Of a stretch of 64,000 bases of DNA, positions 2,245 through 48,185 are shown one piece after another. The number at the start of each line of letters is the position of its first letter. Within the stretch, counting starts at the first letter, position 1. The position numbers and the translations under genes were made by a program. The notes beneath the pieces were generated by a model that worked only from the letters and a program-made list of their open reading frames with translations, had not been told where the DNA came from and did not search any database. The stretch spans positions 1,282 through 65,281 of the forward strand of contig QNEE01000001.1 in assembly GCA_003645085.1 (NCBI GenBank), in the 5' to 3' direction. The DNA comes from a bacterium. Its GTDB lineage: Bacteria > UBP14 > UBA6098.

Positions 2245-2841
2245 TTATTCCCGCCTCGGCCCGACAGGCATAAGGTAGAGCGGCACGCCCTCGACGCCGA
2301 AAAGCGCCGAGACCCTATCGTCGTGAAACGCGCCTATTGCGACGGTCGATAATCCCAATGCCTCGGCAACCAGATATATATTCTGTCCGATGTGCCCTAT
2401 CTCGATATGCACGTATCGTTTTCCGCGTTCGCCGTAACGCCGGGTAGTCCGTTCGTAAATACCGAAAAGACATATCACAGCCGAGGCGTCTTTTAATGCA
2501 GATTGGCGCAGGGCGGCATTTGCGAGGTCTTCAATAAAAAGACCTTCTTTGATAGGTTCCAAAGCGTGCGATTCCTCGATATACCGGTATATTGCCGGTT
2601 CGAGACCTTCGACATTCTCCGCGAGAAGGTAAATATCTATTGGATATGTCGCCCCTGCGCTCGGCGCGGCGCGAAATCCGCGAGAGCTCGTAATGCCGGC
2701 GGAGGCCCATAGAAGTTCGCTAACCTGTTCGAGGTTTATTCCGCCGGAGCCGTAAGACCGCCTGCTTCGTCTTTCCTCGATAGTCCGATGCAACGGCATA
2801 TCGGCACCCGGCGGCGGAGGCAATTTGATAATCTCACCCAT
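2245..2841 (-). CDS. Nitroreductase-family / SagB-type dehydrogenase-fold protein. Start assigned to the internal ATG at 2841; the ORF extends to 3108 but that extension would overlap the upstream cyclophilin gene by >100 nt.
   Basis: Motifs RRSRRSYGSG, ...LLWASAGIT..., and C-terminal nitroreductase-like segments (HIEIGHIGQNIYLVAEALGLSTVAIGAF). Typical ~200 aa size when started at 2841. Confidence 0.65.
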   Translation of the reverse strand: MGEIIKLPPPPGADMPLHRTIEERRSRRSYGSGGINLEQVSELLWASAGITSSRGFRAAPSAGATYPIDIYLLAENVEGLEPAIYRYIEESHALEPIKEGLFIEDLANAALRQSALKDASAVICLFGIYERTTRRYGERGKRYVHIEIGHIGQNIYLVAEALGLSTVAIGAFHDDRVSALFGVEGVPLYLMPVGPRRE

Positions 2842-2893
2842 AGCCGATATTATTATTAAGCCGATTAACAGGATTAAACAAACAAGTCTCTTC

Positions 2894-3490
2894 TTAGTCC
2901 TCGTCACCGCTAATGACCTCTGCCTTGCGGATATATACCGGTTCCACAGGCTTGCTCCCCGCCAGCGGGACCTTTTCGAGTTGATAGACAACATCCATTC
3001 CCGCAATGACCTTACCGAAAATCGTATATTGACCGTCGAGGTGCGGAGCAGCCTTGAACATAATATAGAACTGACTTCCGCTAGAGGCTTTATCGGGGTT
3101 AACGGCATCGCCGCGACGAGCCGCAGCGACCATACCGGCAGTATGCTTTAAATCCGAGAACTCCGCCGGGATAGTATAACCCGGGCCTCCGGTGCCGTCC
3201 CCTTTAGGGTCGCCGCCCTGTGCCATAAACCCTGGGATTATCCGGTGAAATGTTAAACCGTCGTAAAACCCCTCTTTTGCAAGTTTCACGAAATTCTCAG
3301 CGTGTTTCGGTGCGACATCCGCCAGAAGTTCGATATCGATATTGCCGAAATCGGTCGTCAACCTTACTACAGGGTTTTCGCTTTTGGCGGGCGCCGGTTG
3401 TGGTCGGTCGTCGTTGCCGTTCGCCGCACAACCAAAGCCGAAAACCAGAACTGCCGCGATTAACGTAAGAACTAAAACCATCTTTTCCAT
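2894..3490 (-). CDS. Cyclophilin-type peptidyl-prolyl cis-trans isomerase, predicted lipoprotein.
   Basis: FHRIIPGFMAQGGDP...GMVAAARRGD...SQFYIMFKAAPHLDGQYTIFGKV cyclophilin signature. Signal peptide with lipobox (LVFGFGC). Strong RBS GGAGGAAGG before ATG. Confidence 0.9.
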   Translation of the reverse strand: MEKMVLVLTLIAAVLVFGFGCAANGNDDRPQPAPAKSENPVVRLTTDFGNIDIELLADVAPKHAENFVKLAKEGFYDGLTFHRIIPGFMAQGGDPKGDGTGGPGYTIPAEFSDLKHTAGMVAAARRGDAVNPDKASSGSQFYIMFKAAPHLDGQYTIFGKVIAGMDVVYQLEKVPLAGSKPVEPVYIRKAEVISGDED

Positions 3491-3509
3491 CCTTCCTCCT
3501 CGGGATTAT

Positions 3510-6101
3510 TTATGGCGCCTCGTTTTCATTATTTTCGAGAGGTCCGCCATATTCTTTAAGTTTTTCTCTTGCCAGAGCGACTATGGAATCGTCTGTCGAT
3601 GTCTCAACCATCCTTAACCAGACCTGCTTGGCATCTTCTATTTTATCTCTGAACTCGAGAGCCAGCGATAGGTCGTAGAGAACGGTTTGGTCGTCGCTTC
3701 CCGAACAGAAACAGCTATCTAATCGATGCGGCATCAGGACATCGAAGGCTCGGTCGATTTCTCCGAGACGCACCGCGAACATTCCCATTTTTTCACCAAT
3801 CATGCAACGAATGCTGTCATTAGACAACGTATCGTAGACTATTTTCGCCAGCTCGAATCCACGTTCGTATTCTGCCATTTTGTAATTCACCCGCAGCAAA
3901 CCGATAAAGGCCTCGAACCAGACATAGGGATTAGCCCCCGTTTCACCGGTAAGACTCGTGTAAAGTATGCGCGCTTCGGTAAACCGCTCGAGACCCTCGT
4001 AGCTTCTCGCCAATCTTAATTCTGCCAGTTCAAGCTGCGTCGAATCTTTAGCGTTTTCCAGAACATTATTATACGTTGCAACAGCCCTTTCGAGCAGATT
4101 CTCTGCCGCATAGTAGTCCCCCAGAGCGATTACTCCTCTGGCTGCAAGCGGCGATTCCGGGAACTCCCCGAGAAGCTGCCCGAATATCTCGGATGCGGCT
4201 ACGGTATCGCCCATACCGAGATAACAATGGCCCATTCGGTAGCTGGCCTCGACCCAAAGAGAGTCCGGGATATTGCGCTTTCTCAATCTGTCGAACGCTA
4301 TCGCACCCTTTTCGTAATCACCAATCTCACAAAGATAGCCCCCGATATCTATTAGCAACTCTCCCACTAACGGCGAATCGGGATATTTTTCGAGAAACTT
4401 ATCCGTAATCTCGAGCGGGTCGGTGTAGATACCGAGGTGATAACGTGCGTGTTCCGCAAGAACCCGCGTTCTGTCGGCAGTCTCCCGTGAAACCGCGTAA
4501 GCCTCGACCTTATCGGCAAGCCGGATAAGCTCGGTATACCCTTTTCTTTTGTAGAGGATATCGGCGAGTTTGGGGACGACCTTTTCGGCGAGAGGGCTAC
4601 GACGATAGCTGGTTAAAAATTGCCACGCGGATTCCTCGACCTTTTCGGTATTGCCGAGAGCCTCGTAAGCCAGTATCAGGTTATATAACGCGTCGTCGCA
4701 AACATCGCCGCGGCAGGTGTTTAGAAAATCCCTTAGCTCCGAAGCTGCTCGACCGGGACGACCCTCCAAAAGAAAGGTTTCCGCATAGGTCGAACGCGCA
4801 CGCTCGGCGAAATCGTCGTCGAAACCCGAAAAAACCGTCGCAAAAAACATCCGCGCCTCTTCGTATTGCTTCGTTCGCAGGTAACACCAACCCAACCCCC
4901 AGCTTGTTTCACGGCGACGGTTCTCGCAGCAATCGAAAGCGAGCTGGTAATATCCTATCGCTTCCCGGTATCTACGCCTACGGTAAGCACACTCGCCAGC
5001 GAACAAGTTGCATTCTCCAACCAGAGCCATATCTTCGGCTATATCGGCGGAACGTAGAAATTGCGCCTGTGCCGCGGCAAGTTCGCCGTCCTGCATAAAA
5101 AGATATCCTATTCTAAGTAGGACATCGGCGTATAAATCTGGAGACAATTGAGCCAGAAGGGCGCTGTCCTGCGAGGCCTGAGTAGCGCGAGTTTCTATTT
5201 CACCTAAAAGGGAAAGATAAGGCAAGCGTCCGATATAAGGTGAATCGGGGAACCGGTGTCGTAACCGGTCGAAACCGCGCATAGCTGCAAGATGCCGTCC
5301 CTCCATAAAATCCACCGCACCCAGAAGAAAAAGCGCCTCGTCAGCCCACCAATGAGCGCTTTTACGAGAAGAAAAATCATAAAAACTTATCGCGGTTTCG
5401 AGGTGTTCCCTACAAGTTTCCCATTCGCCTCTGGCAAAAGAACCGGCCCCGATACGGTAGTTTATTTCCCCTTCTAGAAGACTCCTCGGGTACTTTTGAA
5501 GAAGGTTAATAAATACGACCCTCGACGAATCGGTCGCACCCAATCTTCCGAGAGACACACCCTGAAGGTAACCTGCCATAAGGCGCATTATCGCCTGTCC
5601 GCTTTTACCTGAAGAAAGTGATGCAAACAAAGTAGCTGCCGAATCGTATTCGCTATTTGAAAAATGCCATACAGCTAACCAGAAATTCCCCCATGGCGGG
5701 CTTCGTGTGCTAAAAACCTCACGCAACCGCCCCGGTCTGCCGCTACTCTGGATACAGTCCCCGAGCCAGAAAGCCGCCCAATCCATAGCAGGAGGCGAAC
5801 TCGGCTCGGAAATCGCTTGTGCATAACTTTTTAGGGCGCGCGTGTTCCAATCGGCAGATTGATAGCTGTAAGCCATTATTAGAGCACGTTGGACGCTATA
5901 ATCACCAGCGCGGTCTCGTGGAATAAAATAATGCGCGGATTGAGGGGAAACCTCGATTAACCGTTTCGACCAGTAATCTGAAAACCGGCTTTCGTCGGAT
6001 GGTTGCGCCAGCGAGACCGCCGTAAAAACGAATATAAGCAGCAAGCTATTCGGGTTTCTCGATAGCCTGCTCCAACTCGTCTTCATCTCTTGGCGGTGCA
6101 T
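3510..6101 (-). CDS. Large periplasmic tetratricopeptide-repeat (TPR) protein with signal peptide. Alternative start at 6086.
   Basis: 863 aa. Signal peptide LLLIFVFTAVSLAQP. Repeated TPR-like helical pairs (many A/Y/L/G periodicities, e.g. ...YRMGHCYLGMGD..., ...ARSYEGLERFTEA...). Confidence 0.7.
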   Translation of the reverse strand: MHRQEMKTSWSRLSRNPNSLLLIFVFTAVSLAQPSDESRFSDYWSKRLIEVSPQSAHYFIPRDRAGDYSVQRALIMAYSYQSADWNTRALKSYAQAISEPSSPPAMDWAAFWLGDCIQSSGRPGRLREVFSTRSPPWGNFWLAVWHFSNSEYDSAATLFASLSSGKSGQAIMRLMAGYLQGVSLGRLGATDSSRVVFINLLQKYPRSLLEGEINYRIGAGSFARGEWETCREHLETAISFYDFSSRKSAHWWADEALFLLGAVDFMEGRHLAAMRGFDRLRHRFPDSPYIGRLPYLSLLGEIETRATQASQDSALLAQLSPDLYADVLLRIGYLFMQDGELAAAQAQFLRSADIAEDMALVGECNLFAGECAYRRRRYREAIGYYQLAFDCCENRRRETSWGLGWCYLRTKQYEEARMFFATVFSGFDDDFAERARSTYAETFLLEGRPGRAASELRDFLNTCRGDVCDDALYNLILAYEALGNTEKVEESAWQFLTSYRRSPLAEKVVPKLADILYKRKGYTELIRLADKVEAYAVSRETADRTRVLAEHARYHLGIYTDPLEITDKFLEKYPDSPLVGELLIDIGGYLCEIGDYEKGAIAFDRLRKRNIPDSLWVEASYRMGHCYLGMGDTVAASEIFGQLLGEFPESPLAARGVIALGDYYAAENLLERAVATYNNVLENAKDSTQLELAELRLARSYEGLERFTEARILYTSLTGETGANPYVWFEAFIGLLRVNYKMAEYERGFELAKIVYDTLSNDSIRCMIGEKMGMFAVRLGEIDRAFDVLMPHRLDSCFCSGSDDQTVLYDLSLALEFRDKIEDAKQVWLRMVETSTDDSIVALAREKLKEYGGPLENNENEAP

Positions 6102-6876
6102 ATAATTGGGAAAGTCCTATACCTATTGAAGTTTCGCTTTTGCCCCAGTAGCTCGTTTCTAATCCTAAAACATAACCTTTACCGATGTCTATGTCAAGCC
6201 CGATAACAGGTTTCGGATATTGACCCGGGTCGTTGAAAAAACCCGATAGCCTGGCATACGGTTCACCCGAATCCTCGGAATATGATTTCCTGTATTTCCG
6301 ACCCGTAATATAGGTCCAATGAACCCCTATATAAGGCTTAGTCCGTCCGAATCGCCAACTACCGTAAAACCCGATGTCGAAATTCTGGTATCTATATGAA
6401 TCCACGAAATGCAAAAGACCACCACCGAATTGGACTTCGTCCGAACTTCGCGTGGTTAGCCACGAGGCGGTTACATACCAGCGAAGCGGGTATCGCGCGG
6501 TCCATCTGCACCCGATACTCGGATAGAAGACGGCGTAATGCATCCTGACGCCCAATCCGAACGCGAGCTCTTGCTTACCGTTGAAATCCTCTTGAGCAGT
6601 GCTGTGGCTCGGCATATCGATATCGGCCATACCGAAATAACCGTAAATATCCGTAAAACGGAATATCCCCAGTGACGGTTTTATAAGCACCCTGCGGCTA
6701 TTTAATTTATAGTCCGGACCCTCGTAACGGATTTTCCACTTTTCATAATCGAATTCTACCCCCGTGCCGAATTTATTATATGGCGTCTCCGATGTGGGAT
6801 TACCGACCATTATACCAAAAACAGGCAGAATGAAAGTGGTAACGGCAAACGCGATTATGGCCGCATTTTTCGGCAT
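6046..6876 (-). CDS. Predicted outer-membrane beta-barrel protein (hypothetical).
   Basis: Signal peptide (AIIAFAVTTFILPVFG). Aromatic-rich alternating hydrophobic pattern (YGYFGM, FGLGVRMHY, GFYGSWRFG, GLDIDIGKGYVLGLETSYW) typical of OM beta-strands. AAGGAG RBS. 48-nt gap after the giant gene. Confidence 0.5.
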   Translation of the reverse strand: MPKNAAIIAFAVTTFILPVFGIMVGNPTSETPYNKFGTGVEFDYEKWKIRYEGPDYKLNSRRVLIKPSLGIFRFTDIYGYFGMADIDMPSHSTAQEDFNGKQELAFGLGVRMHYAVFYPSIGCRWTARYPLRWYVTASWLTTRSSDEVQFGGGLLHFVDSYRYQNFDIGFYGSWRFGRTKPYIGVHWTYITGRKYRKSYSEDSGEPYARLSGFFNDPGQYPKPVIGLDIDIGKGYVLGLETSYWGKSETSIGIGLSQLYAPPRDEDELEQAIEKPE

Positions 6877-6924
6877 ACCAATCTCCTTTTTAGGGGACGG
6901 GTTCTATTATACCGCCCCCGGTTT

Positions 6925-9900
6925 TTACTGCTCTTCTTTAATATAAAACTCGGTTCTCGGCGCTTCTATGACCGTCTCCGGTATTCCCTCGATATCCTCT
7001 TCCGGGGGTCTACCCGGGCGCCTACGAGCATAACCTACCTGAGTAGTCAACATTCCCCCTGTGCTATTTATAGTCGCCATTAACACTCCGATACTCGCCC
7101 CTCCGGTATCTGCAGCGGTGCAGGTCCAGCTTGCTTCTCCGGTGTTTCCCGTTGTTTGCGGATTAGCCGTAACGATAGTTACATTCGCGCCGGAAAGCGT
7201 AATATCCTCACCGCATATCGGATTATCCCACTGGTCGACTATACGGACTGAAGTAATAAAATCGCAGGTGTATGGAACCGAACTGGGAGCATTGATAGTC
7301 GAATTACTCGAGCTGGGCAGGTCGTGTTTAAGATATACAGTTCCACTTGTTACGACTCCGCCGATATTCGCGGTTACATTCACCGCTTTCGCGGTATCCT
7401 GCCCGCAATAATCGTCGCGGAATACGTTTGCGCCGGTATAGGTGCTTACCGCGTAACTACTGTAACATTCGTTAACGGAAGTTACCGGCGAGGTTACCGA
7501 ACCCCAGTCGGTTATCAGGTTTACACTCGTTCCGTCCGTAACCGGATTCCTGTTGACGTCCCATATAGAGACTTGAATCTCCGCTGTTCCGGTGGCGTCG
7601 GCATAGACAACCGCGGGCGAAATCGAAATAGCCATGCTGTCCGCCGGACCGCTATTATAGAAATATACGGTATCCGCACGCACGCCGCTCGTATCTCTCG
7701 TTTCCGCGATTATCGTAACGATACCGGTAGTGCCTCTGGGGTCGGCCGAATACCAGGTCGCAAAGGCGAACCCCGAATCGTCGGTTACGGAGGAGGTCGT
7801 TATCGCGCCCTGTAAAGCGGTGAACCATACGGCAGTTCCCGGCGCTACAGGATTATCGAACGTATCGGTAACGATAGCCATAATCGAGTTACTAACACCA
7901 TCGATATCCCAACCGCGCACATTACAATCCTCTCTCGATACCGAAACATTGAACGGCAGACCGCTGCCGATGGTTATCCTCGGCGCACGGGAGTCGATAG
8001 ACCCGCCGCCGGGGATATAAGCGACGGCTTCGACGACCATAGAGCCTGACCTATCGCCGCTTCGTGCGGCGACACTCGCGCGACCGGCCATCGTATAGAC
8101 TGTATCGCTGACCAACGCGCCGCCGGGTATCAACTCGGGATTTATCGAGCCGCCGGTCGGATAATCGACAATTCGGAACACGACCGCGCAGCTATCGCGG
8201 ACTGGATTGTCATACTCGTCGTATATTACAGCTTCGATTACCGCTTGGTCAATCTCGCCCACTCCGCGGATATAGATAAAATCACGGCTTACCGCGATAT
8301 CCATAGTATGCGGCGGGCCGGCGTATAGTAGTATGTTCGCGTGTTCTGACAAACCATCGACGGTAGCTGTAATCCCTGTCAGGCCGGCATTCAGTCCCGG
8401 GGTATAAAGCGTGGCGTAGAAACCGCTATCATCGGTGGCTACAATCGGGTCGGCGACGCTGCCTGTTCCGACGCTATCGACACTCAAATATACGTATGTC
8501 CCCGGCGCAACCGGATTATCCGCGGCATCGGTTACGTAACCGGAAACGATGCTCGTTATGCTGCTTCCGACTGTAGCTGTATCGGGCACGACGGTCAGCG
8601 TGATTTCATCCGGAGAACCGGCTTCGTAGGTAATTGTTACGAAAGCGGTTTCGCTCTGACAGATAGCGCGAATAGTATCGACACCGCTCGTATCCGCGGC
8701 GACGAGAATAGCCTCGGCGACACCGCTCAATAACGAATCTACGGGCGTAATCAAACCCATCTGTGCCGTGAAACGCACCGTTACGCCGTCAGATACCGGG
8801 TTGCCGAGACTATCTAAAACCGTAACGTGAACGTCCGCAGTCGAAATTCCGTCGGCGGGCAACCCGCGCGGTGAAATCGATATTATTATCGTATCGACCG
8901 TCGTAGCCAGATAATCTATCGGTAGATACCCGTTAACACCGCCGCTGGTCGCCTGCAGGTAAGATGAACCTATTCTGGTTGGTGAGGTAACCTTGAACGG
9001 AACTCCGCCTAAAGGTCCCGTTACCGCCATAGGGGGCGTTACAGACCCGAGGTCGAGCGTAAACGTAATAGCCTCGCCCGGAATACCGTTCCCGAAAGCG
9101 TCCTCGACCCAAACCGAATCGGCGAGTGTATCCACGCCGTCGGCGTAGAGTTGAACGAAATTCGTATCGAATCGGACAACCGCTATATCTCCCGGCAGGA
9201 AATAGACCGAGATAGTATCCGAATATATCGTATCGACGTAAGCGTAGACAAAGGTGCTTCCGATTACGGTCGGAGTGAACAGATGGACAGTAGCCCCGCC
9301 GTCGGTTGTAGTTTCGCGGTTCGGATTAAGAAGACCCTCGACACTACCGAGCGTCGTATCCTGCCCGAATCTCACGATAGTGCCGTCGGCAATAGGCATA
9401 CCCAAAGTATCGGCGACGAATGCTGTTATGTCGGCGAAAGTAACACCGTCTGCAGGCATATATCTCGGTGTAATTGAAAGTATAACCTCTCCGACATCTG
9501 TCGGGTCGAGCTGGATTTGCGTTACGCCCTCCGCGCCCTCGCAGTTCGCGCGGACAATAGCGACACCCGCGTAGCGTCCGGCTCTGAATGGAACATCGAC
9601 CCAACCGGAGTCGTCGGTCGCCGCGACACTCCATATCGTTCCGTAATCGGGCGGGTCGATAGAGAAATTAACGGCGTGTCCTGCGCCCACTTTATTGCCA
9701 AATGCATCGGTAATTTCTCCGTGAATCATCGTCGTATCCGTCTCATCGGCCATAAGAGTGGTTCTTCCCGGGGTAAGCCAGACATACGCAGGCGGGCCGG
9801 ACTCGAAAAGGATTGCCACGGTATCGGTCGAGTCGCCGCAGGTAGCGACGAGGCTGTCCCAACCTACGCTCGTATAGGCTGTTATCGTTGCGTTGGCCTC

Positions 9901-12900
9901 GCCGTCGGTAGTCGTAGTGAAGACTGGTGAAACATTCCCAAGTGAAAGGTCGGAGAACCGGACCGTAGTTCCGTCCGATACCGGATTGTCTGTCGTATCC
10001 AGAACGTAGACGATAACATCAGCGGTGCTTGCGCCGTCTGCTGTGAGGATTGTCGGGACGACCGTCAGGTTAACCTCCTTGACCTCCGTTGAAGTGAATT
10101 CGATAAGTATGTTCGCGTGAGCATCCCCGGATGTGGCGGTAACGTTAGAGAAACCGCTGACCGAGCCGGAAACCAAGCGAACACTCGCACGCCCAGAACT
10201 ATCCGTATATGCCGTAGTAACAATATCACCCAACGTTGCCGAGAAAGTTACCTCTTCACCGGGGCTAACCGGATTGCCATATTCGTCATAAACCTCTACG
10301 AATATTGTGCATATATCCGCGGAATTTGCGCTAATAACCGTATCCGAAGCCGAGATATACATAACTGACGGCGGTCCCGGCACGAACCGGGCATAAGCGG
10401 TATCGATTGCGGTTCCGCCGGCGCTTGCTGTTACATATACGGTATCTGCCGGTGTGGTTCCCGCAATAAGACTGCTCGTCGCAACTCCACCCAGTGTATA
10501 AGCTACCGCCGGACTGATAATCCCGTCGCTTGTTCCGAAACGAACCATCGTGCCGTCGGAGACCGGAAGACCAGTGGAATCCCATACTACCGCTGTAAGA
10601 TTAGCGGTTTCGACACCGTTTGCCGTTAGCTGCGGCGGATTAACCACGAGAAGTAACGATTCCGCAAGAAGCGGAAGGAAATTCAACGTCGCATATCCCG
10701 TAACTCCGCTGCATCTCGCAGACAAACTCGCCGTGCCGAAATCTGTTTCTGCAATAACCACCGTATAGGAAAACCCGGAATCGTTTGTTGCGCTTGCAGG
10801 TGTAACATAGCCTATAGTGATATCGTAACTAATCGGCAGACCCGGCGTAACGGGGTTCCCGAAAGCATCTGTAACCTCGACCCATACCGTCTGTGTGTCC
10901 GCCCCGTCCGCATACATATCCCTTATCGGCAGGACGAATGCGACAATAGCAGGCGGACCGGGTATGAAATCGACCACAGCGGTATCCGCGACAGTCGGGC
11001 TTACCGAAGCTATAATTGTGTCGGGACCCGTAGTAATCCCCGCGATAAGCTGCGCTGTAACCTGACCGTCCACAGTATAAGCCGTCCGCGGGGTTACGAT
11101 ACCACCACCTCGACTTTCGAAAAATACGGGGGTATTATCCGAAACCGGACGAATCCCACCCGTCGTATCCAATACCGAAGCGAGAAGGTTGCTGGTAGAA
11201 CTGCCGTCGGCGAGAATACGTATCGGGTTCGCGACGAGGTCTATTACGTCGGCAGTAAGCGCATAGAAATAGTATGGTCTGCTGCCGACAGCGACACCGC
11301 TTCGAGCGGTTACAAAAGCCGGACCGGTTTCCATACTCGAAAGAAGCGTTCGAGCCGTCCCCGAATCCGAATCGACAACGCTCGGCGAGATAATCTCGCC
11401 ACGGCTGGTCTCGAATGTAACCTCGGTTCCGATATTAACAGGATTATGGTAAGCGTCGTAGACCCTGACAACGACATCGTAACCTGCGCCGTCGGCCGGA
11501 AGCGTATCGGCATAAGTCGTATCGAACTCGATAGTCGCGGGTTCTCCAGGAATATAGGTAACCATAGCCGAATCGACTACTGTGGCGCCGACTGTGCCGA
11601 TAATCAACCCCTGACCGACATCGACGGGTGCGGTAAGAATCGCGGTAGCCTGCCCACCGGAAGTAAACGCGATACGCGGAGTGATAATACCTGTAGGCCG
11701 GCCTCCCGTCGTATCCTGTGTGAACGTAACGCGCGTATTATCGCTAACTGGTAATCCGCCGGCATCGTAGACATAGGCCGTAATATCCGCGGTGCTCGTC
11801 CCGTCTCCCGGAAGTATAGTCGGTATGACATTTACGATAATTTCGGCAGCAGTGAGCGAGTCGAAGAACACATCCACAAACTCGATAGCCTCTCCGCAAC
11901 GAATAGTTACCAGCGCGTGTCCCGACTCGGTAGAAGCGGTCAATCGGGTAAAGGCATAACCGGAAGTATTTGTATAGCCTGTTGGAATAATAGAACCGAG
12001 TGTCGTCTCGAACGATACGGGCGTAGCGGGAGCAACCGGGTTCGGATAGCGGTCGTAAACGGTGCATGCAATGGCAGCCACAGATGCGCCGTCGGCATAT
12101 AAAGTCCCGGGGATGGCATACGCGACTATCCGCGAAGCCGGTCCGGGATTCAGGCGAATGGTAGTTCTACCGGTATCGGACCCTGCGATAGCCCATATTT
12201 CGATACCGGGTGTAGCGACTGTATCCGCTTTGAGTACCGTAGTCGCTACTCCGCTGTCGGTATAGGCATCTGCGGGTAGCGGCAGCGCAAGACCGCTGGG
12301 AACCTCGAAACGAACCTGAGTATTGTTCGATACGAGATGACCGCCGGCGGAATAGACATAAGCATAGAGCTTGGTTGTGCTCGTGCCGTTGGCTACAAGT
12401 TCGGCAGAATCTGCAACGAGCAGGACATTATCGACAGTAGTAGCTTGTAGATTTATTTCTCCGTAACCCATAGCCTCGCCGCAATAGGCAAGAATAACGG
12501 CGTTGCCGGGTTCGAGTCCGGCGACCAACAGGGATTTGGCGATACCGGAAGTATCGGTTATCGCCGTAGGCGTTATCGTCCCGAGGCTGGTTTCGAATCT
12601 CACATTTTCCCCGGCTTCGAGATGGTTCCCATACTGGTCGAGGACTTCTGCGTAGATGAATATATCGTCGGCACCATCGGCCCAGATAGTATCGGTTGGA
12701 GTATGAGCCGTATCCGACCAGACGTTGATTGTCGTGGCCGGTCCGGGCTTTACAAAGATACGCACGCTATCTATAAGAGTATCCGGAGGCACCGCCATAG
12801 TGTCGAACACCTCTCCGATAATCCAGGCTTCACCAGTGCCGACCTGTGTGCTGGCAGTAAATATTGTTACACAACTACCGCCGAAAGTCAGCTTGGGTGA

Positions 12901-15900
12901 AACAACTGTCCCGGCCGTATCCGCAGGCCGGACGCGGAAATTGACCCGCGTGCCGTCCGTTATCGGGCTGCCTTCCCAGTCGAAAACCTGACAGGTTATA
13001 ATAGATTGAGACATACCGTCGGCGACAAGCTCGACAGGGTCGGCAGTCAACAGCAATGCACCGACATCGCTCTTGCGGAACGTAACTTGCGTAAGCTCGA
13101 ATTTCCCGCTGCTTTGCGCCCAGACCCGTGCGATTCCCGGTTCGGTCCCGGCGGTTAACATAGAGAAAGCGTCCCCAGCCGAATTCGTCATCGTATTCGA
13201 CGGCGCAATAGTTCCGAGGTCCGTTCCGAACGAAACGGATTCACCTGAAAGCAGTCGATTGCCGAAATCGTCGTAAAGAGTGGCGGTTATTTGCGATTCG
13301 TCGCGTCCGTTGGCCGCTATCGTATCCGGATTGGATTGTATATCGATAAACGAGAGAACTCCCGGTAATATCTGGATAAATACGGCGTCGCTTATCGTAT
13401 CGACCGAAGCTTGTATCCATACGCGACCACGTTTTGTTGTAACACGAAATTGAGTCTCCGCGATACCTGTCGTTGTGTAGGCTATCGTCGGTATTAATGA
13501 ACCGAGCGTATCCGACGGCGTAAGCAGTGTATCCCATATCGTATCCGGCCACATCGAGAATATTACCGGCGTGCCGTCGGATACGGGATTTCCAAGGCTA
13601 TCCAGGACGCTGGCCCGGCACGTTGTTTCGGAATACCCGTCTGCCTGCATAACGACATCATCGACCATAAGCGCGACCGTGAAGACGTTAGTCGGTGTAA
13701 ATACAACGTCGACTTCCCCGCGAGCGATTCCTGAACGACCGACCACTCTCGCAACACCTTGGTCGAAAGAACTGCGAAGGTAGACCTCGACTACACCCGC
13801 GCTGTTCGTTTCATCCGACACCGGGAACACTTCCCCACGACTTGTAGAGAACGTTACCTCGATACCGCCTCTAACGGGATTGCCGAACCGGTCGAACACA
13901 TAGGCGCGGATTGTATCCACACTGAAACTGTCTGCCGGTAAGGTTCCGATGGAAGCCGCCATATAGATGCTGTCCGGTTCCCCGGGAACGAGGTCGCACG
14001 AGACCGAATCGGAGATATAGAAACCGAGCGTATCGCCGACATAACCGACGATATGGCAGGTTTGCGCTTTCGTCCCCGCTGTAAATGTCGAAACAAAGGA
14101 ACCACTATCGGTATAAGCTGTTCCCGGCGAAATATATCCGAGGTCGATGCCACTCGTGTCGGGTATTACATATATATGAACGGGTGTCCCGTCCGTAATC
14201 GGATTCCCTAGGCTATTACGAACCATTCCTGAAACCTCCGCCGAGGACCGACCGTCTGCAACAAGCAAACTCGGGTCTATCGTAATAAACATCTCATCGA
14301 CGTTAGCCGGTATAAAATCGACACGACCGACATCTACCGCTTCGCCCGAAGTCGCGGTAATTAAGGCTGTTCCCGGGACTATCCCGCTTTGCAAACTCGT
14401 AATAGCGACTCCTGTCGTGCCGGCTATTATTTCCGTAACGGCGATAGTATCTATATTACCGAGAGTCGTCGAAAAATAGACGAGGTGCCCCGGCGCAACG
14501 CGGTTACCCATCGGGTCGAAGACATAAGCATTGATATCGGTGCGCGATGCCCCATCCGCGATAAGACTCGCCGAATCGGGGATTATTTCTATTAGATATG
14601 GTTCGCCTGCCCTGAAAGAAACATAGACCGTGTCCGAGACATAATACGTATCAGTCGGGTCGCCCACATAGCCGATAACCATAGCGGTATCGACATCGGA
14701 ACTGGCGCGGAGAGTTACCTCGGCAGCACCGCTCGTAGTATATGCCACACCGGGGAATATATTCCCCGCACTTGTCGTGAAGAAAATCGGCGTGGAGTCC
14801 GAAACACCGACCCCGGAAGTATCGAGAACGAGTGCATGCACTATCGTTTGGCTTACACCGTCGGCGATAAGAGACATACTATCCGTGAACAGGTCGATAG
14901 CGCCGACTGTAAGTGGAATAAGGTCTATCATAGTATAGCCGGCCGGGCCGCTCTCGCATGTTCCCGTGATTACCGCTCTGCCGACGCCGACACCCGCCTG
15001 GAAAGTTACATCGCTCGGGCCTGTAATATCTGTAAACGTATAAGTCGGGAACATCGTTCCCAGTTCCGATTCGGGGCCGACGACGAAATTAATTCGCTCA
15101 CCAGATTCCACAAGATTGCTATACTCGTCGTAGACCCATGTTCGCACTGTGCATATACTCGAGCCGTTGGCATAAAGGACGTTCGGGATAGCCTGCATAG
15201 TTACGCTAAACGGCGGTCCGGGCGTGAATATAACCTGAACGGTATCCGATAGCGAATCGGCCACTCGCGCCGAGACATAAGCCGTTCCTGTATTCGGCTC
15301 GGAATAGAGCCTGACGACCGCCTCGCCGTCCGTGGTCGTGGCGAGTGTGTCTATGCTGCCGAAATCGGCTCCGCCGCCGTCGACAGAATGGAAAATTACC
15401 AGAGTTCCGTCGTTGATAGGTTGCCCGAGTTCGTTGAGGACCTTGGCTGTTACCGTAGAATAGCTTTCGCCGTCGGCTGGTATCCGTCTCGGCTCTGCGC
15501 GAAGGCTTAAATACGCTGGCGGTGCGATATCCAGATTAACCTGAACTACCGCATGGCGGCCCTCCGCCTCGATATCTATACGTGCGATTGTGGGCACAAC
15601 TCCGGCAGTTAGCACTGCGTCGGCCTGCCCGGAAGAATTAGTATAGGTAACGTTTGGTGTTATCGAACCCGCGGTAGTCTCGAAACGAACCTCGATGCCC
15701 GCGCCGACCGAGTTGCCGTAGCGGTCGTATAACCTCGCGTGGACAATCGTGAACGCCTCGCCGTTGGCGGGTATCGCTGCGTCGTCGGCCCAGGCCTCGA
15801 TGCTGTCCACCGGGCCGGCAATCAGGTCGAGGAAAGTGTTCGCGCAATTAGTGCTGTCTGTGCAAGCCTGAACCCAGATTCTCCCGGTTTCCGTCGCGCT

Positions 15901-22401: not shown

Positions 22402-22475
22402 AGAGACGCTCCTTTATTCTTAAATTGGCAAACTCTCTATTACACTTACTATTATACTAATTCTCTTTAAGTGGA
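22402..22475 (-). promoter_or_regulatory. Candidate promoter/5' leader of the giant adhesin gene, inside a 346-bp AT-rich intergenic region (22402-22747).
   Basis: On the minus strand the sequence reads ...TTAAAGAGAATTAGTATAATAGTAAG... (TATAAT-like -10) about 50 nt upstream of the RBS/ATG. The region is markedly AT-rich compared with its flanks. Confidence 0.3.
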
Positions 22476-22747
22476 TTGTCAAGGGAAATTTCGTTTTTTA
22501 TGCACAGAAAACCTTTAGGTGAAAATGGTTATCCCTAAAATCCACCTAATATTTTTTGTTTTTACTATATATAATAAAAAAGATGCAAATTTTATGCCGT
22601 AGAAGAAACCCACTTAAATAAAGGCTTTGCGGATTATGTTGCAGGTGAGTTTATTGCATTTTGCACGAAAAAACTTTATAATGCAATTCTCTATAGAAAT
22701 ACGTTCCGGGAGGTTCATCCGAACCGGAAAGAACGGTATATTCCGTA

Positions 22748-23713
22748 TTAAAAAACCAATCTTAGGGTATCTCTTGAAATACCTTTTGCTCCAAACCCCT
22801 CTTTGAAACGGGCAAGACCGAAATTCGGCTCCATATCGAGCGTATAGGTCCCGAAATCCAGCCATGAAAATCCTCGCTCTATCGCCCACTGGAAAATATG
22901 CCGGAAAACGAGATTCAGCGGACGGAATTCCTGCGCGTCTTCACGGTGGCTTATGTAAAAAGCAATAACGGCCTGTTCGTCGACCTCCCAGATATTGACT
23001 CCCGCGACCGGTTCACCGTCGAGTATGGCATTAAATTGATGTATCTTGTCGGGAAAACGTTTTTTCAGGTCGAGAAGTTCTTCGAGCGTATGTGTTGGTT
23101 TGGTGTTATGCCGGGCGTATAGATTGGCCTTTAAGATATCGTAGAACGCCGGAATATCGCCTTGCTCTGTTACTTTAACACCGGCTTTTTCCGCTTTTCG
23201 CGCGGCTGTGCGCGCTTCCGGACGGAATAACGCAAAGGCTTCCTCTCCCGTTTTCCCGAGCCTGAGCACAGCCGTTAATTCGCGTTTAACAATTACTCCG
23301 CCGTGCCGCATAAGCGCAAAATCTACGTGCTCATCCGGAAAGCGATGATATACCAGCGGAACTCGCGTGAACTCGATTCCTTCAAAATCGTTTCTTATTG
23401 CCCACTCAATCCAGACATCGACCATACGATGCGCCGGTCTTATTCCTACCTTTGTCGAACAGGCTATGCCGCCGAAACTCGCTCCGGGATGGCTTGCGTA
23501 TATCCGTTTTCCGTCTCTGAAAGCGACTGCCCCGGGAAGAACTCCGGCCCATTTACCCCTGTCGTCGAAAATAAGATGGTGATGTTCGAATCTATCATCG
23601 GGATGGTAACTTAAAAACCGTTGGGTATGGAATATCGTGCCGTTGTTCGCTTTTGAAACGAAATCGTCCCAGCGAGCGGCAAGTTCGGGTGTATATTCGA
23701 TAGCTTTCATCAA
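22748..23713 (-). CDS. FemAB-like / GNAT-fold acyltransferase (VimA/EpsI-like family).
   Basis: 321 aa. No signal peptide. Acetyltransferase-like C-terminal half (…NIWEVDEQAVIAFYISHREDAQEFRPLNLVFRHIFQWAIERGFSWLDFG…) resembling BioF2-like/FemAB-family (Acetyltransf_6) proteins. Start ATG overlaps the stop of the upstream gene (ATGA). Confidence 0.55.
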   Translation of the reverse strand: MMKAIEYTPELAARWDDFVSKANNGTIFHTQRFLSYHPDDRFEHHHLIFDDRGKWAGVLPGAVAFRDGKRIYASHPGASFGGIACSTKVGIRPAHRMVDVWIEWAIRNDFEGIEFTRVPLVYHRFPDEHVDFALMRHGGVIVKRELTAVLRLGKTGEEAFALFRPEARTAARKAEKAGVKVTEQGDIPAFYDILKANLYARHNTKPTHTLEELLDLKKRFPDKIHQFNAILDGEPVAGVNIWEVDEQAVIAFYISHREDAQEFRPLNLVFRHIFQWAIERGFSWLDFGTYTLDMEPNFGLARFKEGFGAKGISRDTLRLVF

Positions 23714-25980
23714 TCTCCCCTGATTAATGCCACTTTGCCGCGGAGAGTTCCGCTACTCGACGGTGCCGACAGCAGATAAATTCCACTTGCAACCGGTTCT
23801 CCAGCGTTGTTTCGACCGTCCCATAAAGCCGTCGATATGGATGACCTATCTGAAACAGATATTGTCCGGATAGGTTGGCCATCGGGCGTATAAATATACA
23901 GATGGGCATCGGACGGTATTCCGGAAATACTCACCATATCCGTAGCTTTCCTATACCAGATGAAAGGATTGGGATAAACGACGAGTTCACCGTCGGACTC
24001 GGAACCCTCACCCAGTCCAGTATGAAGAACACTTATCGCGCCCTCGCCACAGAACCAGACATCGCCGGTTGTAGGATTAAAAGCTACCGCGTAAAGAACC
24101 TCGGTAGCGAGGTCGGTTCGTTCTTCTGGGAGTATATCGGGGGTATAGCTGGTTCTTATGGCGTGCCATGAGCTATCGGAGCTGCGATACATCGCCGCAC
24201 CGCTCTGGTCGGTAGTAATCCACACGTTGTTCCATTTATCGACAACTATATCGTTTACGCCGCTGCCGGCGTTTTCTGGAAGAGCCTGAATCGTAACCAG
24301 GCCGAATGCCGGGTCGATACTCGCGACGCCCCCCGCTACCGCAACCCAGGCTTTCCCTGTCGTATCCACATCGACTCTCTTCGCCGACGCACTCGGCAAT
24401 TCGTCGTTATAATTAACCACGAAGTCGTCCGAAAAACTTTCGAGGTCCGGCCCCACATCGACCATCGTAACCCCCTCGTCTTTGAGGACCAGCCAGATAC
24501 GACCCGAGCCGGCGGCTATATCGTAGACCAGATTATTCGGGAATCCCGACACTCCACTATAATAGCTCACAATCGGGTTTTCGAGGTCGCCATGTCTTTC
24601 GAATGCTGCCGCGACGAGATTCGATATAGCGAAATAGTTCGTTATCCACATCACATCCCGTTCGTCGTCGTAGGCTAACGCCCAGCAAAGCTCGTCATTT
24701 TCGCAACCGGGGTAACCCGTTAAAATGCTATTCGTTCGGTCGAATATCTCCCAGTCTCCGTTCGTAAAACGTTTATAGACACCGTATCCACTCGTTCCCG
24801 CCCACAATGTTCCGTCGCAATCGAGTTCTACCGCCTCGATTTTATATATGGTATTATATACTGCCATACTTATCGAGTCCGAAGAATCGGGTTCCATCGA
24901 CCTCGTATCGAAAACAGTCCATACGCCGTCGCGAAAACGGTTTATTCCATATCCGTGTGCTACTACCCAGACGTCGCCATTGGGAGCTATAGCTATATCG
25001 GTGAATCCTCCTCCGCGAGGGCAATTTATTGCATACGGCCATACAGTATCGTTTATCATCACACCGAAACCGACTTCGAGGCCGACATAAAGGGAATCGT
25101 TTAGCACTGTTCCTCGGTGTGCGGGGAAATAACCCTCGACTTGAATACGGTCGAAATCGCCGGGGTGGTCGTAGATAAAAAGCCCCGAATGACCTGCGGC
25201 GTAAAATTCCCCTTTATAATAGAAAAAACCGTCGATATCGCGGTCGTTCATCCAGGAATCGCTAACGGTGTCTATAATTATCCCGTCTGTCCAGAAAATC
25301 GTCGGCATATCCGTCGCTTGCTCCAGAGCGAACCACACACCGCCGGAATCGGCCATTAATGCCGTTATCGGTCTGTCCGTGCCTATAGTCTGCCATGCCT
25401 CGGGAACAAAAAGGTTGCTTCCAAGCCTACCGAAGGCAAGCCCCTCGTCGGTTCCAACCCAGAGAACCGTATCGTCCGCGGCGACACGGTTTACGGCTAT
25501 ATTGCTTTCGTAATCTCCGAATTTCATATAATTTTCGGCGACCTCTACAGCCTCGTAGCCCGGTAGAACGTTGAGTTTGCTGATACCCTGTCCCGTAGCC
25601 GCGTATAGATTTTCTCCCGCGGGAATAAGGTCGTTAACGGGAATATTAGCTCGTAAAAGGTCGGAATAGGTTGTCCAGACCTCGCCGTCCAAACGGCCGA
25701 GAGCGCCATTCGAGCAACCGTAATAGAGCTTGCCGTTATGAACAACCAAAGCCACAATCTCCAATCCACCCAACCCGTCTATATTCGTCATAATCTCGAT
25801 ATTCCCGCTACCCGGCTTATAAACCAATATCCCGCCCTTCGTTCCGGTATAAATCTTGCCTTCGAAAGACGCGATACTCATCGCATAGTTCATATCGGCA
25901 AACGTCTCCCAGGTTCCGGGAACCTGCGTTAAAGCAGTAACGACAAGCGATAAAGTAATTATTAAGTATAGGATTTTCAT
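23710..25980 (-). CDS. Secreted beta-propeller repeat protein (two-component-regulator-propeller-like repeats) with T9SS C-terminal domain.
   Basis: Signal peptide MKILYLIITLSLVVTALTQV. Repeated ...G-L--Y... propeller-like blades. C-terminus VVYPNPFIWYRKATDMVSISGIPSDAHLYIYTPDGQPIRTISVS...GIYLLSAPSSSGTLRGKVALIR is a T9SS CTD. Confidence 0.7.
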   Translation of the reverse strand: MKILYLIITLSLVVTALTQVPGTWETFADMNYAMSIASFEGKIYTGTKGGILVYKPGSGNIEIMTNIDGLGGLEIVALVVHNGKLYYGCSNGALGRLDGEVWTTYSDLLRANIPVNDLIPAGENLYAATGQGISKLNVLPGYEAVEVAENYMKFGDYESNIAVNRVAADDTVLWVGTDEGLAFGRLGSNLFVPEAWQTIGTDRPITALMADSGGVWFALEQATDMPTIFWTDGIIIDTVSDSWMNDRDIDGFFYYKGEFYAAGHSGLFIYDHPGDFDRIQVEGYFPAHRGTVLNDSLYVGLEVGFGVMINDTVWPYAINCPRGGGFTDIAIAPNGDVWVVAHGYGINRFRDGVWTVFDTRSMEPDSSDSISMAVYNTIYKIEAVELDCDGTLWAGTSGYGVYKRFTNGDWEIFDRTNSILTGYPGCENDELCWALAYDDERDVMWITNYFAISNLVAAAFERHGDLENPIVSYYSGVSGFPNNLVYDIAAGSGRIWLVLKDEGVTMVDVGPDLESFSDDFVVNYNDELPSASAKRVDVDTTGKAWVAVAGGVASIDPAFGLVTIQALPENAGSGVNDIVVDKWNNVWITTDQSGAAMYRSSDSSWHAIRTSYTPDILPEERTDLATEVLYAVAFNPTTGDVWFCGEGAISVLHTGLGEGSESDGELVVYPNPFIWYRKATDMVSISGIPSDAHLYIYTPDGQPIRTISVSDRSSISTALWDGRNNAGEPVASGIYLLSAPSSSGTLRGKVALIRGD

Positions 25981-27437
25981 ATTTTTTTAAAAAGGCTCGC
26001 TAAAAGCAGTAAAATCGGTGAAGCAAAAACGCTGCCGGTGCCCACCCAATCGCCGATTCTGGTGAAAAAGGTAGTTCGTTCATTCAACGGTATATCGCCT
26101 ACCAGAATGCCTTTTGTATTAAGCGGTATTTTTCCGACCATTCGACCTCTCTCATCGACAATAAGCGAGATACCCGTCTGTGCCGACCGGCCGATACCGA
26201 ATCTGTTCTCGACTGCGCGGAACCTGCAGAAATTAGCGTGTTGAAATGGTCCCGGGGTTGTGCCGAACCAGCCGTCGTTGGTTATATTCGCCAGGAATCG
26301 CGCCCCGTTCAAAGCGAATCGCCGCGCCGACCGTCCGAAAAGAACCTCGTAACAAATAGGACTCGAGAACTTCATCCCGTCTACATCGAAGACCACCGCT
26401 TTTTTCCCGCGCGCGAAATGGCTACCTCCGAGGTCGATTTTCTTTAGAAAAGGGAAAATGTCCTGAAAAGGTATCTGCTCGCTCATCGGAACGAGGTTCA
26501 TTTTATGATATACTCCTGCGACTTTCGTAGATGTTATCACCATAGCAGCATTATAATAGAAATTCTTCCTATCGGCCGGGTCGAAATCGAGTGTTCCGGT
26601 AAGTATTGGTGCCCCGGCCCGTTCGGAAGCGGCGGCCAGGTCGGCCACAATCTCCGGGTGGTTCCTGTGATAATATGCCGTTGCGGTCTCGGGAAGGACT
26701 ATAAGGTCGACCTTCTCTCCGATAGAATCTATCATCGCCGCATAGTAATCGATGTTTTTACGTCGGAATCTCCCGGACCATTTAAGGTCGGCGGAAATGT
26801 TCCCCTGCATCAGGGCTATACGGATATTCTCGCCGGCGGGAGGCTGTTTAAGCCGCCAGATACCATAACCGATGGGTATCGCAAAAACAACCAGAAGAGC
26901 CAGGCCGAATGTCCATTTCCTTTTCTCCGATATGGCTATACTCGCGATAAGAATGTTTATCACTATAACCCAAAAACTAATTCCCCTATGCCCGATTATA
27001 TCGGCCATCTGTATTATGACGATATAAGGGCCTTGTGTATAGCCAATATCCATCCACGGAAAACCTATCCTTCCAAAACCGCGCAGAAATTCCATACCGG
27101 TCCAGAGTATCGGCGCCGCCGCGAGCGCGAGAGGCAGGTTCCGCCTCTCGATAAACGAAAATACGACTCCAAACAGACCGTTATAAAGCGAGAGAATCAA
27201 GACCGCGCCTATCATACCGGCTACGGTCGGCAGAGCTATCCAATAGAGCGAAAGAAGGTTCGACGTAAAACCCCATATATAGGTCAACATAAAAGCGCTT
27301 CTATAATTTTTATCACGGAGGACAAATAGCAGTGGCACGACACAAAAATATGCCAGAAACGTGGTAAAAAAAGGAGGCTGTGACGAAGAAAAAAGCACTC
27401 CTCCGGCAACCGCGAAAACGACATCACGGAAATACAT
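25977..27437 (-). CDS. lnt: Apolipoprotein N-acyltransferase. Start assigned to the internal ATG at 27437; the ORF extends to 27512, which would overlap purM.
   Basis: N-terminal multi-TM region followed by a CN-hydrolase domain (…KVDLIVLPETATAYY…, …LANITNDGWFG…). Confidence 0.85.
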   Translation of the reverse strand: MYFRDVVFAVAGGVLFSSSQPPFFTTFLAYFCVVPLLFVLRDKNYRSAFMLTYIWGFTSNLLSLYWIALPTVAGMIGAVLILSLYNGLFGVVFSFIERRNLPLALAAAPILWTGMEFLRGFGRIGFPWMDIGYTQGPYIVIIQMADIIGHRGISFWVIVINILIASIAISEKRKWTFGLALLVVFAIPIGYGIWRLKQPPAGENIRIALMQGNISADLKWSGRFRRKNIDYYAAMIDSIGEKVDLIVLPETATAYYHRNHPEIVADLAAASERAGAPILTGTLDFDPADRKNFYYNAAMVITSTKVAGVYHKMNLVPMSEQIPFQDIFPFLKKIDLGGSHFARGKKAVVFDVDGMKFSSPICYEVLFGRSARRFALNGARFLANITNDGWFGTTPGPFQHANFCRFRAVENRFGIGRSAQTGISLIVDERGRMVGKIPLNTKGILVGDIPLNERTTFFTRIGDWVGTGSVFASPILLLLASLFKKI

Positions 27438-27457
27438 ACCTTCTCGAATATCCCTTT

Positions 27458-45996: not shown

Positions 45997-46023
45997 CAGA
46001 ATGAGGGCAGTTACGTTCGGTTC

Positions 46024-46656: not shown

Positions 46657-46657
46657 C

Positions 46658-47011
46658 TCACTTTTTTGCTCTCTTTTCTTTAACTTTAGCGGCCTTGCCC
46701 TTTTTCTTGCGGAGATAATATAGTTTAGCTCTACGGACCTTACCGTGCTTAATAATCTCTATTTTCGTAACGTTAGGCGAATGGATAGGAAAAACTCTTT
46801 CGACACCGACTCCGCCGGAGACCTTGCGAACGGTCATCGTCTCGGTCGAGCCGCTGCCTTTCCGGCTGAGGACTATCCCCTGAAAAGCTTGGACACGTTC
46901 CTTGTCCCCTTCTTTAATGCGAACATGGACCTTAACCGTGTCGCCCGGACCAAACTCGGGCAATTCCTTAATTTGCGATGCGGTTACGTTTCTGATTATT
47001 GCGTCGGACAT
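46658..47011 (-). CDS. rplS: 50S ribosomal protein L19.
   Basis: [52 protein letters not shown]…. Confidence 0.95.
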
Positions 47012-47067
47012 TTTAATCTCCTCCTCCTATGATAAAAGCCTACTTTTCTTTATTCTAGATTTTATTC

Positions 47068-47111: not shown

Positions 47112-47130
47112 CAGTCAGGTGGGGCGTTTA

Positions 47131-48174: not shown

Positions 48175-48185
48175 TATTTAAGAAC

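Follow-up and report, generated by a model that had tools for sequence, protein, structure and literature searches.

The stretch of DNA analysed here is 64,000 nt long (positions 1,282 to 65,281 of contig QNEE01000001.1, assembly GCA_003645085.1; hereafter the window) and comes from a bacterium of the UBP14 lineage. Its minus strand carries a gene for a giant lipoprotein built of Big_1 and Invasin_D3 repeats of the immunoglobulin (Ig) type, followed by genes for an outer-membrane beta-barrel, a secreted tetratricopeptide repeat (TPR) solenoid, a cyclophilin-type peptidyl-prolyl isomerase (PPIase) with a lipoprotein signal and a SagB-type nitroreductase-fold protein (Table 1). Judged by the export signals in their sequences, all five products are envelope proteins. 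The coupling of the first two genes recurs in very distant bacteria, and this linkage suggests that lipoprotein adhesins may be displayed or anchored on the cell surface in a manner not described before.

Table 1. Genes and promoter match of the cassette, in window coordinates (ORF, open reading frame; AF2, AlphaFold2 model).
Feature	Position	Strand	Basis
Giant Big_1/Invasin_D3 lipoprotein, 5158 aa	6925..22401	-	ORF list
Outer-membrane beta-barrel, 276 aa	6046..6876	-	ORF list, AF2, Foldseek
Secreted TPR solenoid, 863 aa	3510..6101	-	ORF list, Pfam, AF2
Lipoprotein cyclophilin-type PPIase, 198 aa	2894..3490	-	PF00160, lipobox
SagB-type nitroreductase-fold protein, ~220 aa from GTG 2907	2245..2907	-	PF00881, TIGR03605, start-site reasoning
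Sigma-70-like promoter match TTGACA-17-TAGTAT, 10/12	22454..22482	-	consensus match alone, weak

The gene cluster and its giant lipoprotein

A preliminary description of the locus, made from the sequence, had listed four same-strand genes after the giant, with gaps of 48, about -55, 19 and 52 nt, and all of these ORFs and junctions were found as claimed. The giant and barrel genes are separated by 48 nt (6877-6924), the barrel and TPR genes overlap by 56 nt (6046-6101), or by 41 nt if the TPR protein starts at Met6 (6086), and 19 nt (3491-3509) lie between the TPR and cyclophilin genes. The last junction depends on where the nitroreductase-fold gene begins, being a gap of 52 nt with a start at ATG 2841 and an overlap of 14 nt with a start at GTG 2907. 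A hairpin scan of the window detected no terminator-like hairpins within the four junctions. The only candidate start of the unit is the sigma-70-like site at 22482-22454, located 53 nt 5′ of the giant's start, and matches of this kind in the region upstream of the giant are no more numerous than in shuffled sequence. At the 3′ end the unit is bounded by a convergent M42 aminopeptidase gene on the plus strand (1200-2234), position 2245 being the stop of the nitroreductase-fold gene.

The giant consists of Ig-type repeats from end to end, with each half matching Pfam Big_1 and Invasin_D3 at 447-505 bits and in 12-18 stretches for each model. Its N-terminus is formed by a signal peptide with the lipobox LIFAGGC (Cys28) and a 13-aa Gly/Ser/Pro tether, and the C-terminal tail reads ...YARRRPGRPPEEDIEGIPE...EFYIKEEQ. 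The N-terminal 600 aa give a weak match to an intimin model, and a Pfam scan of the giant revealed neither a barrel domain nor LysM. Within the last 599 aa no sorting domain of a type IX secretion system (T9SS), type A or B, was detected with NCBIfam at E<=0.1, and Pfam reported only Ig-type domains in the giant. The composition is acidic and low in Lys and Cys, which would fit an extracellular adhesin, and a chain of this length with its approximately 50 Ig domains is probably too large for a periplasm. Proline accounts for 5.4% of the residues, which removes the reason originally offered for the presence of a cyclophilin, namely the folding of proline-rich Ig repeats.

The barrel family and its lipoprotein partners

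The prediction that the gene next to the giant encodes an outer-membrane beta-barrel is borne out by structure modelling. The AF2 model, built with 19 homologues, consists of a signal helix and, after it, a beta-barrel (pLDDT 79, pTM 0.70), and every significant match in a Foldseek search against the PDB is an outer-membrane barrel at a TM score of ~0.42, the matches comprising the omptins Pla and OmpT, the translocators of NalP, EspP, Hbp and EstA, and FapF. A Sec signal peptide is present, the mature N-terminus carries a conserved GNP motif, and the C-terminal tail is acidic. In the mature part of ~235 residues DSSP assigns 12 strand elements, of which two pairs are possibly single kinked strands, so that the barrel would have 10-12 strands; three of them are long (19-22 residues) and probably protrude from the membrane in the model. 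The conserved polar or small residues E41, S60, R62, G107, G109, G226, D228 and E240 are predicted to face away from lipid, and across the whole family only glycines are invariant. The single cysteine, Cys123 (6508-6510), is invariant in the close clade and placed by the model in a periplasmic turn.

No Pfam or NCBIfam family was found for the window barrel, and the same applies to P0110, P0053 and P0041. The window barrel and 25 members of its family give no match to DUF560 (PF04575) at E<=1, and IAT_beta is not matched by any of the 25 scanned members. Weak OMP_b-brl matches occur in 11 of the 25, and the autotransporter beta-domain PF03797 is weakly matched by two (best E 9e-4). In hhalign comparisons the family aligns with residues 1-480 of YeeJ at a probability of 0.35% and with the C-terminal 300 aa of Ag43 at 0.12%, and its profile finds only marginal barrel matches among PDB sequences. 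On the strength of the model, the protein is a real outer-membrane barrel of a hitherto undescribed family, the size being about 250 aa; a literature search of incomplete coverage found no description of the family or of its pairing with Big_1 lipoproteins. Two other readings of the barrel were considered and rejected: that of an omptin-like protease, as there is no conserved Asp/His set, and that of readthrough or fusion with the giant, as every member retains a signal peptide belonging to the barrel. Each locus has a single barrel gene, and the rest of the window contains no paralogue.

A genome scan for the family with alignment A1 returned 6 close species only, a metagenome scan with A6 gave two loci, one of them a duplicate of L007, and a word-indexed search with the A2 profile found few distant members, whereas an exhaustive profile search revealed them and yielded 70 barrel cluster representatives, 20 with E<=1e-10. 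Upstream sequence is available for 16 distinct loci, made up of the window, seven other close loci (50-65% barrel identity), L009, L023 and, at 21-27% identity, L007, L011, L012, L020, L021, L022 and L024, and in all 16 a Big_1/Invasin_D3 gene lies immediately 5′ of the barrel gene on the same strand, L012 having a Big_1-like C-terminal fragment in this position. Across the linked loci the partners range from 697 to 6710 aa, and the intergenic distance lies between -4 and 60 nt except for a single one of 289 nt. Barrels at 21-27% identity still follow their partner directly, at 11-31 nt, and these partners are far smaller than the giant of the window (L007, 1065 aa; L011, 697 aa; L020, 852 aa; L021, 2022 aa; L022, 939 aa; L024, 931 aa). 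Moreover, a lipoprotein signal followed by a Gly/Ser/Pro-rich tether of 13-19 residues precedes the first Ig strand in each of the seven distinct full-length partners, the window's included, with Lys at position +3 from the Cys in six of them.

The surroundings of the pair differ widely among the distant loci. In L007/L025 (L007 1618-10771) and L024 (745-8756) it stands at the 3′ end of a pilM-pilN-pilO-(pilP)-pilQ cluster, with gaps of 16-19 nt, and in L022 it probably also follows pilMNOPQ; in L021 (1-20750) it is embedded in a cluster resembling those of type II secretion systems (T2SS) and type IV pili, with sigma-54 activators, and in L020 it is found among housekeeping genes (ribosomal genes, UvrC). 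The pil and T2SS neighbourhoods hint that the pair may be connected with secretin or pilus machinery. None of the loci at 21-27% identity has a TPR, cyclophilin or nitroreductase-fold gene adjacent to the pair; the one TPR gene noted in L021, of 388 aa, is unrelated and lies at a distance of four genes.

Proteins with Big_1 domains are rare in genomes. Since they are rare and since the neighbourhoods and partner sizes differ, the linkage of lipoprotein and barrel is unlikely to be due to chance or inherited synteny. From gene linkage we conclude that the two form a functional pair and are the constant core of the module. Barrel or TPR genes occurring widely away from any giant lipoprotein, which the preliminary description had named as one observation that would speak against a shared function, were not seen, given the upstream Big_1 gene at every locus with upstream sequence and the position in the cassette of every TPR orthologue whose surroundings were inspected. 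The broader claim of a functional unit stands in part: the tightly packed, co-oriented and exclusively envelope-directed genes are conserved, but the core that is constant comprises only the lipoprotein and the barrel.

The accessory genes of the Zixibacteria-like cassette

The full set of five genes is a feature of the closer relatives. Nineteen close barrel homologues share 50-65% identity with the window protein, some of them from bins labelled candidate division Zixibacteria, Zixiibacteriota or UBP14, and the order giant, barrel, TPR, cyclophilin, nitroreductase-fold is present in every close locus with enough sequence, with giants of 5052-5394 aa where complete. The overlapping gene junctions are conserved among the cassette loci, and in L003 the downstream block (M16, dUTPase, M28, a 530-aa protein and M42) is inverted with the five genes intact. 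The order is likewise complete in L009, where the barrel is 34% and the TPR protein only 24% identical to those of the window, the flanks are unrelated, the giant has 6710 aa and the giant and barrel genes overlap by 4 nt; in L023 (barrel 28%) giant, barrel and TPR follow each other up to the contig end. The proposed check for conserved synteny of adhesin, barrel, TPR and PPIase genes in related genomes has accordingly come out positive in all Zixibacteria-like loci examined, down to barrel identities of 28-34%. Orthologues of the TPR protein are found only in the same clade, 16 of them at >=54% identity before a drop to 23%, and wherever the locus of an orthologue was examined, it proved to be the cassette. 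In L001, from a metagenome assembly, two ORFs make up the TPR gene (10938-13365; 414 + 404 aa), which is intact in the near-identical L002 (10938-13364; 808 aa), and in L010 (7077-7969) the nitroreductase gene is uncalled although tblastn detects it; both cases are likely frameshifts or assembly errors.

The three accessory products are of the kinds first proposed for them, with one start site moved. The putatively periplasmic TPR protein has a Sec signal peptide, TPR matches over most of its length (Pfam TPR_6 and related models) and an all-helical AF2 model of ~47 helices (pLDDT 81.5). Of the named models it approaches YbgF/CpoB at 86.5 bits against a cutoff of 90.1, BamD and PorW also staying below cutoff, and a Foldseek search with its model returned only generic TPR or solenoid scaffolds and nothing specific. 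The cyclophilin domain, covering residues 42-192, matches PF00160 at 174 bits (cutoff 21.7), and the lipobox VFGFGC agrees with the suggested lipid anchor, a lipobox being present also in three of the four relatives read. The last product scores 96 bits with PF00881 and 131 bits with TIGR03605, for which the cutoff is 78.4, and is thus a nitroreductase-fold protein of the SagB type. Its frame is open up to 3108, and gene callers use ATG 2841; GTG 2907 is preceded by AGAGG, and with this start the protein gains a hydrophobic, K/R-rich N-terminus, TRTKKRLVCLILLIGLIIISA. Relatives have an equivalent hydrophobic segment, in frame 5′ of the called ATG in L002, L003 and L005 and at the called start in L009, and it is followed by the conserved motif I(K/Q)LPxPPG. 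GTG 2907 is the most probable start of the gene, and because the hydrophobic segment recurs in relatives the protein appears to be exported or membrane-anchored, which would be unusual for its family. The cassette contains no cyclodehydratase or precursor peptide gene, and for this reason, together with the export signal or anchor, a role of the SagB-type protein in the synthesis of thiazole/oxazole-modified microcins is unlikely. The TPR protein has 14 Cys residues, six of them invariant among orthologues; along with the barrel cysteine and an exported flavoprotein-fold protein, these might be a sign that the module involves redox or disulfide chemistry.

The tails of the giant and the barrel offer a possible connection to the TPR protein. 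The giants of the window and of the close relatives share a non-Ig C-terminal tail (window 6925-7030) with the elements S/A-RRRP, an acidic stretch, IPE and EFF/EFY, the L009 giant has a different acidic C-terminal tail, and in the barrels of close relatives the acidic tail at the C-terminus is conserved as ..QAIE(K/R)P(D/E) (window 6046-6100). Extended tails are the kind of ligand that TPR domains would bind. As the distant pairs, which have no TPR gene, possess neither the giant tail nor the acidic tail of the barrel, both tails may be regarded as candidate TPR ligands.

Proposed role of the barrel, known systems and the wider window

We consider it somewhat better than an even chance, with a probability of about 0.55, that the barrel is a dedicated partner which displays or anchors invasin-like lipoproteins, equipped in one lineage with a periplasmic accessory set. 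The barrel would be the cognate outer-membrane partner that brings the Ig array of the lipoprotein to the cell surface and retains it there, a role suggested by an Ig chain too large for the periplasm and by its adhesin-like composition. In the Zixibacteria-like lineage the pair would have gained three more, putatively co-transcribed, periplasmic genes. Of their products, the TPR scaffold might hold the ~5000-residue substrate in an unfolded or partly folded state or bridge it to the barrel, the lipoprotein cyclophilin could act as a folding catalyst or holdase, and the exported SagB-like flavoprotein-fold protein would be the third addition. The data show what the genes encode, the targeting of their products to the envelope, the fold of the barrel and its strict linkage to a lipoprotein gene over deep divergence; the surface location, the topology and any role of the TPR, cyclophilin and nitroreductase-fold proteins are what we infer from the genes and models described above.

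As to the topology, the arrangement that we prefer has the tether of 13-19 residues after the lipidated cysteine enclosed by the barrel, with the acyl chains in the inner leaflet of the outer membrane and the Ig array outside, which would make the pair a split, lipid-locked analogue of an inverse autotransporter. Three considerations favour such threading. First, the tether is short and of near-constant length whatever the size of the protein. Next, the conserved residues of the barrel are on its lumen side. Finally, the arrangement would provide a load-bearing lock. There is precedent for lipoproteins inside barrels, as RcsF is threaded through OmpA/C/F and LptE-LptD is a plug-and-barrel complex. 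The proposed topology would resemble these in placing the lipid in the inner leaflet and the tether within the barrel, with the remainder of the protein outside, and the tether and barrel might be put together by the beta-barrel assembly machinery, as in the case of RcsF. The barrels in those examples are, however, general porins or the lipopolysaccharide translocon, and no dedicated partner is encoded beside the lipoprotein gene. In its fullest form the proposal would be that the family represents a two-gene split inverse autotransporter of uncultivated phyla related to the Fibrobacteres-Chlorobi-Bacteroidetes (FCB) group, in which the barrel is assembled around the tether, lets the Ig array cross and locks it in place, and which in Zixibacteria has been elaborated with a TPR, a PPIase and a flavoprotein-fold factor for substrates of 5000-6700 residues; this we put forward tentatively.

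The resemblance to known inverse autotransporters (type Ve; intimin, invasin, YeeJ and FdeC) lies in the same Big_1/Invasin_D3 passenger repeats. Those proteins have an N-terminal 12-stranded IAT_beta barrel in the same polypeptide, which the giant lacks; here, in contrast, the barrel is separate, encoded downstream, provided with its own signal peptide and devoid of IAT_beta, LysM is absent and the passenger is N-terminally lipidated. ZirT/ZirS are proposed two-partner inverse autotransporters with separately encoded Ig-like substrates (PMC4943183), and such variants, to which SinH with its Rat-like proteins also belongs, share with the pair described here a small barrel genetically coupled to an Ig-repeat surface protein. 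Nor does the barrel fall within the classical autotransporters (type Va), given the PF03797 and Ag43 comparisons above and Foldseek matches to NalP, EspP and Hbp at a TM score of only ~0.4.

Several points weigh against the display role and its threaded form. The Foldseek matches of the barrel are generic at their TM score of ~0.42 and the strand number may be 10, 11 or 12; with 10 strands, the polar, Gly-rich interior may leave no opening, and such a closed barrel would speak against a threaded chain. The distant pairs often stand beside secretin genes, which suggests that export could run through a secretin, with some other employment for the barrel. Only one phylum-level lineage has the TPR, cyclophilin and nitroreductase-fold genes, so that history might account for part of their linkage. 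Every member of the barrel family, furthermore, is from an uncultivated organism.

The last-but-one of these points leads to an alternative that we regard as possible though less probable, in which only the lipoprotein and the barrel are functionally linked, and the TPR (YbgF/BamD-like), PPIase and redox proteins are products of general envelope-maintenance genes whose shared transcript with the pair is historical. The absence of accessory genes next to any distant pair is in keeping with it, as are the YbgF/CpoB and BamD likenesses and generic fold matches of the TPR protein and the origin of all cassettes from one lineage. A merely historical association would, on the other hand, have had to preserve the gene order and overlapping starts down to 24% TPR identity, amid changed flanks and a local inversion, and it would leave the TPR orthologues occurring only in the giant-bearing clade, those examined all beside a giant. 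That the accessory genes are tied to the pair is further suggested by the export of all three products, by the coincidence of their clade with the one that has substrates of 5000-6700 residues, by the post-Ig C-terminal tail that cassette giants have and distant partners do not, and by the conserved acidic tail of the close-relative barrels.

A second alternative, rather unlikely but the chief competitor of the threaded arrangement, is that a different machine exports the lipoprotein, be it the secretin of a T2SS or type IV pilus, in the manner of InvL and PulA, or some general flippase for lipoproteins, and that the barrel is no conduit but a docking or anchoring receptor, for instance through its protruding strands, or a regulator of the adhesin. 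InvL of Acinetobacter baumannii, an invasin-like lipoprotein without a barrel domain, depends on a specific path to the surface, being displayed via the T2SS and GspN (PMC9245377), and the residues just after its lipidated Cys matter for sorting (PMC12802150). InvL is the nearest analogue of the substrate, being likewise an N-terminally lipidated invasin-like Ig-repeat adhesin, and it demonstrates that such a protein can use a secretin, of which genes adjoin several of the distant pairs. It differs in its size of 492 aa, compared to 697-6710 aa here, and no cognate barrel gene is mentioned for it in PMC9245377 or PMC12802150, whereas here a barrel gene is always adjacent. A docking function would also suit a barrel whose best fold matches include the 10-stranded omptins, which are no channels, and whose three longest strands would reach out of the membrane, and SprF is similarly thought to anchor SprB and not to conduct it. 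What counts against a secretin is that no secretin or pilus genes are present near the cassette in the window and its close relatives, that the L020 pair lies among housekeeping genes, and that the linkage of the lipoprotein to the barrel is far stricter than to any secretin.

The preliminary description had seen in the barrel and TPR genes a possible split translocator of the Slam type (type XI), with the cyclophilin folding proline-rich repeats, and this now appears very improbable. The likeness consists in a barrel gene adjoining a surface-lipoprotein gene and a periplasmic TPR element, whose gene here overlaps that of the barrel, the overlap being conserved. In the survey of Slam proteins, however, the TPR and DUF560 barrel are fused in all members, the substrates share an eight-stranded barrel domain and the systems were reported from Proteobacteria (PMC5449769); the substrate domain is of the TbpB/fHbp type. 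In contrast, the barrel described here is smaller, has no DUF560 and 10-12 strands instead of 14, the TPR protein is unfused and dispensable family-wide, as seen from the distant pairs, the substrates are all Big_1 proteins, not notably rich in proline in the case of the giant, and the hosts are not Proteobacteria. By sequence and model, Slam membership fails on every defining feature tested.

The SprB adhesin of Flavobacterium has an adjacent cognate barrel, SprF, that is needed for its secretion and anchoring, and a PPIase was among the T9SS and gliding proteins recovered in the SprB/SprA pull-down (PMC9143113), a precedent for a PPIase that accompanies machinery of outer-membrane secretion and anchoring. 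A giant repetitive adhesin followed by a cognate barrel, a PPIase and an FCB-related host with a T9SS are common to both cases, but here the adhesin is a lipoprotein without a type B domain and the barrel has 10-12 strands, not 14, and no PorP/SprF signature. An arrangement in which the giant is T9SS cargo and the barrel a PorP/SprF-like anchor is therefore scarcely tenable: the sprB-sprF gene order is mimicked and the genome encodes a PorZ-like protein, a C25 peptidase that ends in a sorting tail and several further proteins with sorting domains at the C-terminus, yet the giant carries a lipobox and no type A or B sorting domain, and the barrel, which lacks matches to PorP/SprF and to every other NCBIfam or Pfam model, falls short of the size of a 14-stranded FadL-type protein.

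If the barrel does act as the display partner of these lipoproteins, the pairing would be of some general interest. How lipoproteins cross the outer membrane and are retained on the surface is unsolved beyond Slam, T2SS cargo, the Bacteroidota export signals and RcsF, and the family provides a strictly linked pair of substrate and partner, with ~70 cluster representatives, that combines a lipoprotein of well-understood fold with a small barrel and could be moved into E. coli. The intimin/invasin passenger fold, known to be attached through a fused barrel or through a lipid anchor combined with T2SS export, would gain a third mode, and the pairing suggests how half-megadalton adhesins may be anchored firmly enough to bear load. 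It also supplies an annotation rule for an orphan "hypothetical" outer-membrane family and for its TPR, PPIase and nitroreductase-fold neighbours in Zixibacteria-like genomes.

Elsewhere in the window, T9SS components or cargo are encoded at 23710-25980, 49115-52450, 27-986 and 32230-36282, namely a PorZ-like propeller protein, a PorU-like C25 peptidase with a sorting tail, an MXAN_6640-like metalloprotease fragment and a 1350-aa protein with an IgGFc-binding domain, the latter two with weak, sub-threshold matches to T9SS C-terminal sorting-type models. Genes for lipoprotein and outer-membrane biogenesis lie around the giant (25977-27512, 37867-38628, 38832-40046 and 44635-45996) and comprise Lnt, a LolA-like protein, a LolC/E-like permease and LptF/G; the Lnt gene is two genes upstream of the giant, and the clustering is possibly a coincidence. 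A D12-class N6-adenine DNA methyltransferase gene (36481-37761) lies in a segment of lowered GC content (0.445), and the ORFs of >=150 aa include no obvious restriction gene as its partner. Finally, a low-GC island at 46000-50000 (0.40-0.42 compared to ~0.50) contains genes for a Tsp45I-type restriction enzyme (48186-48977) and an N6/N4 DNA methylase (47131-48174) and is probably a horizontally acquired restriction-modification system.

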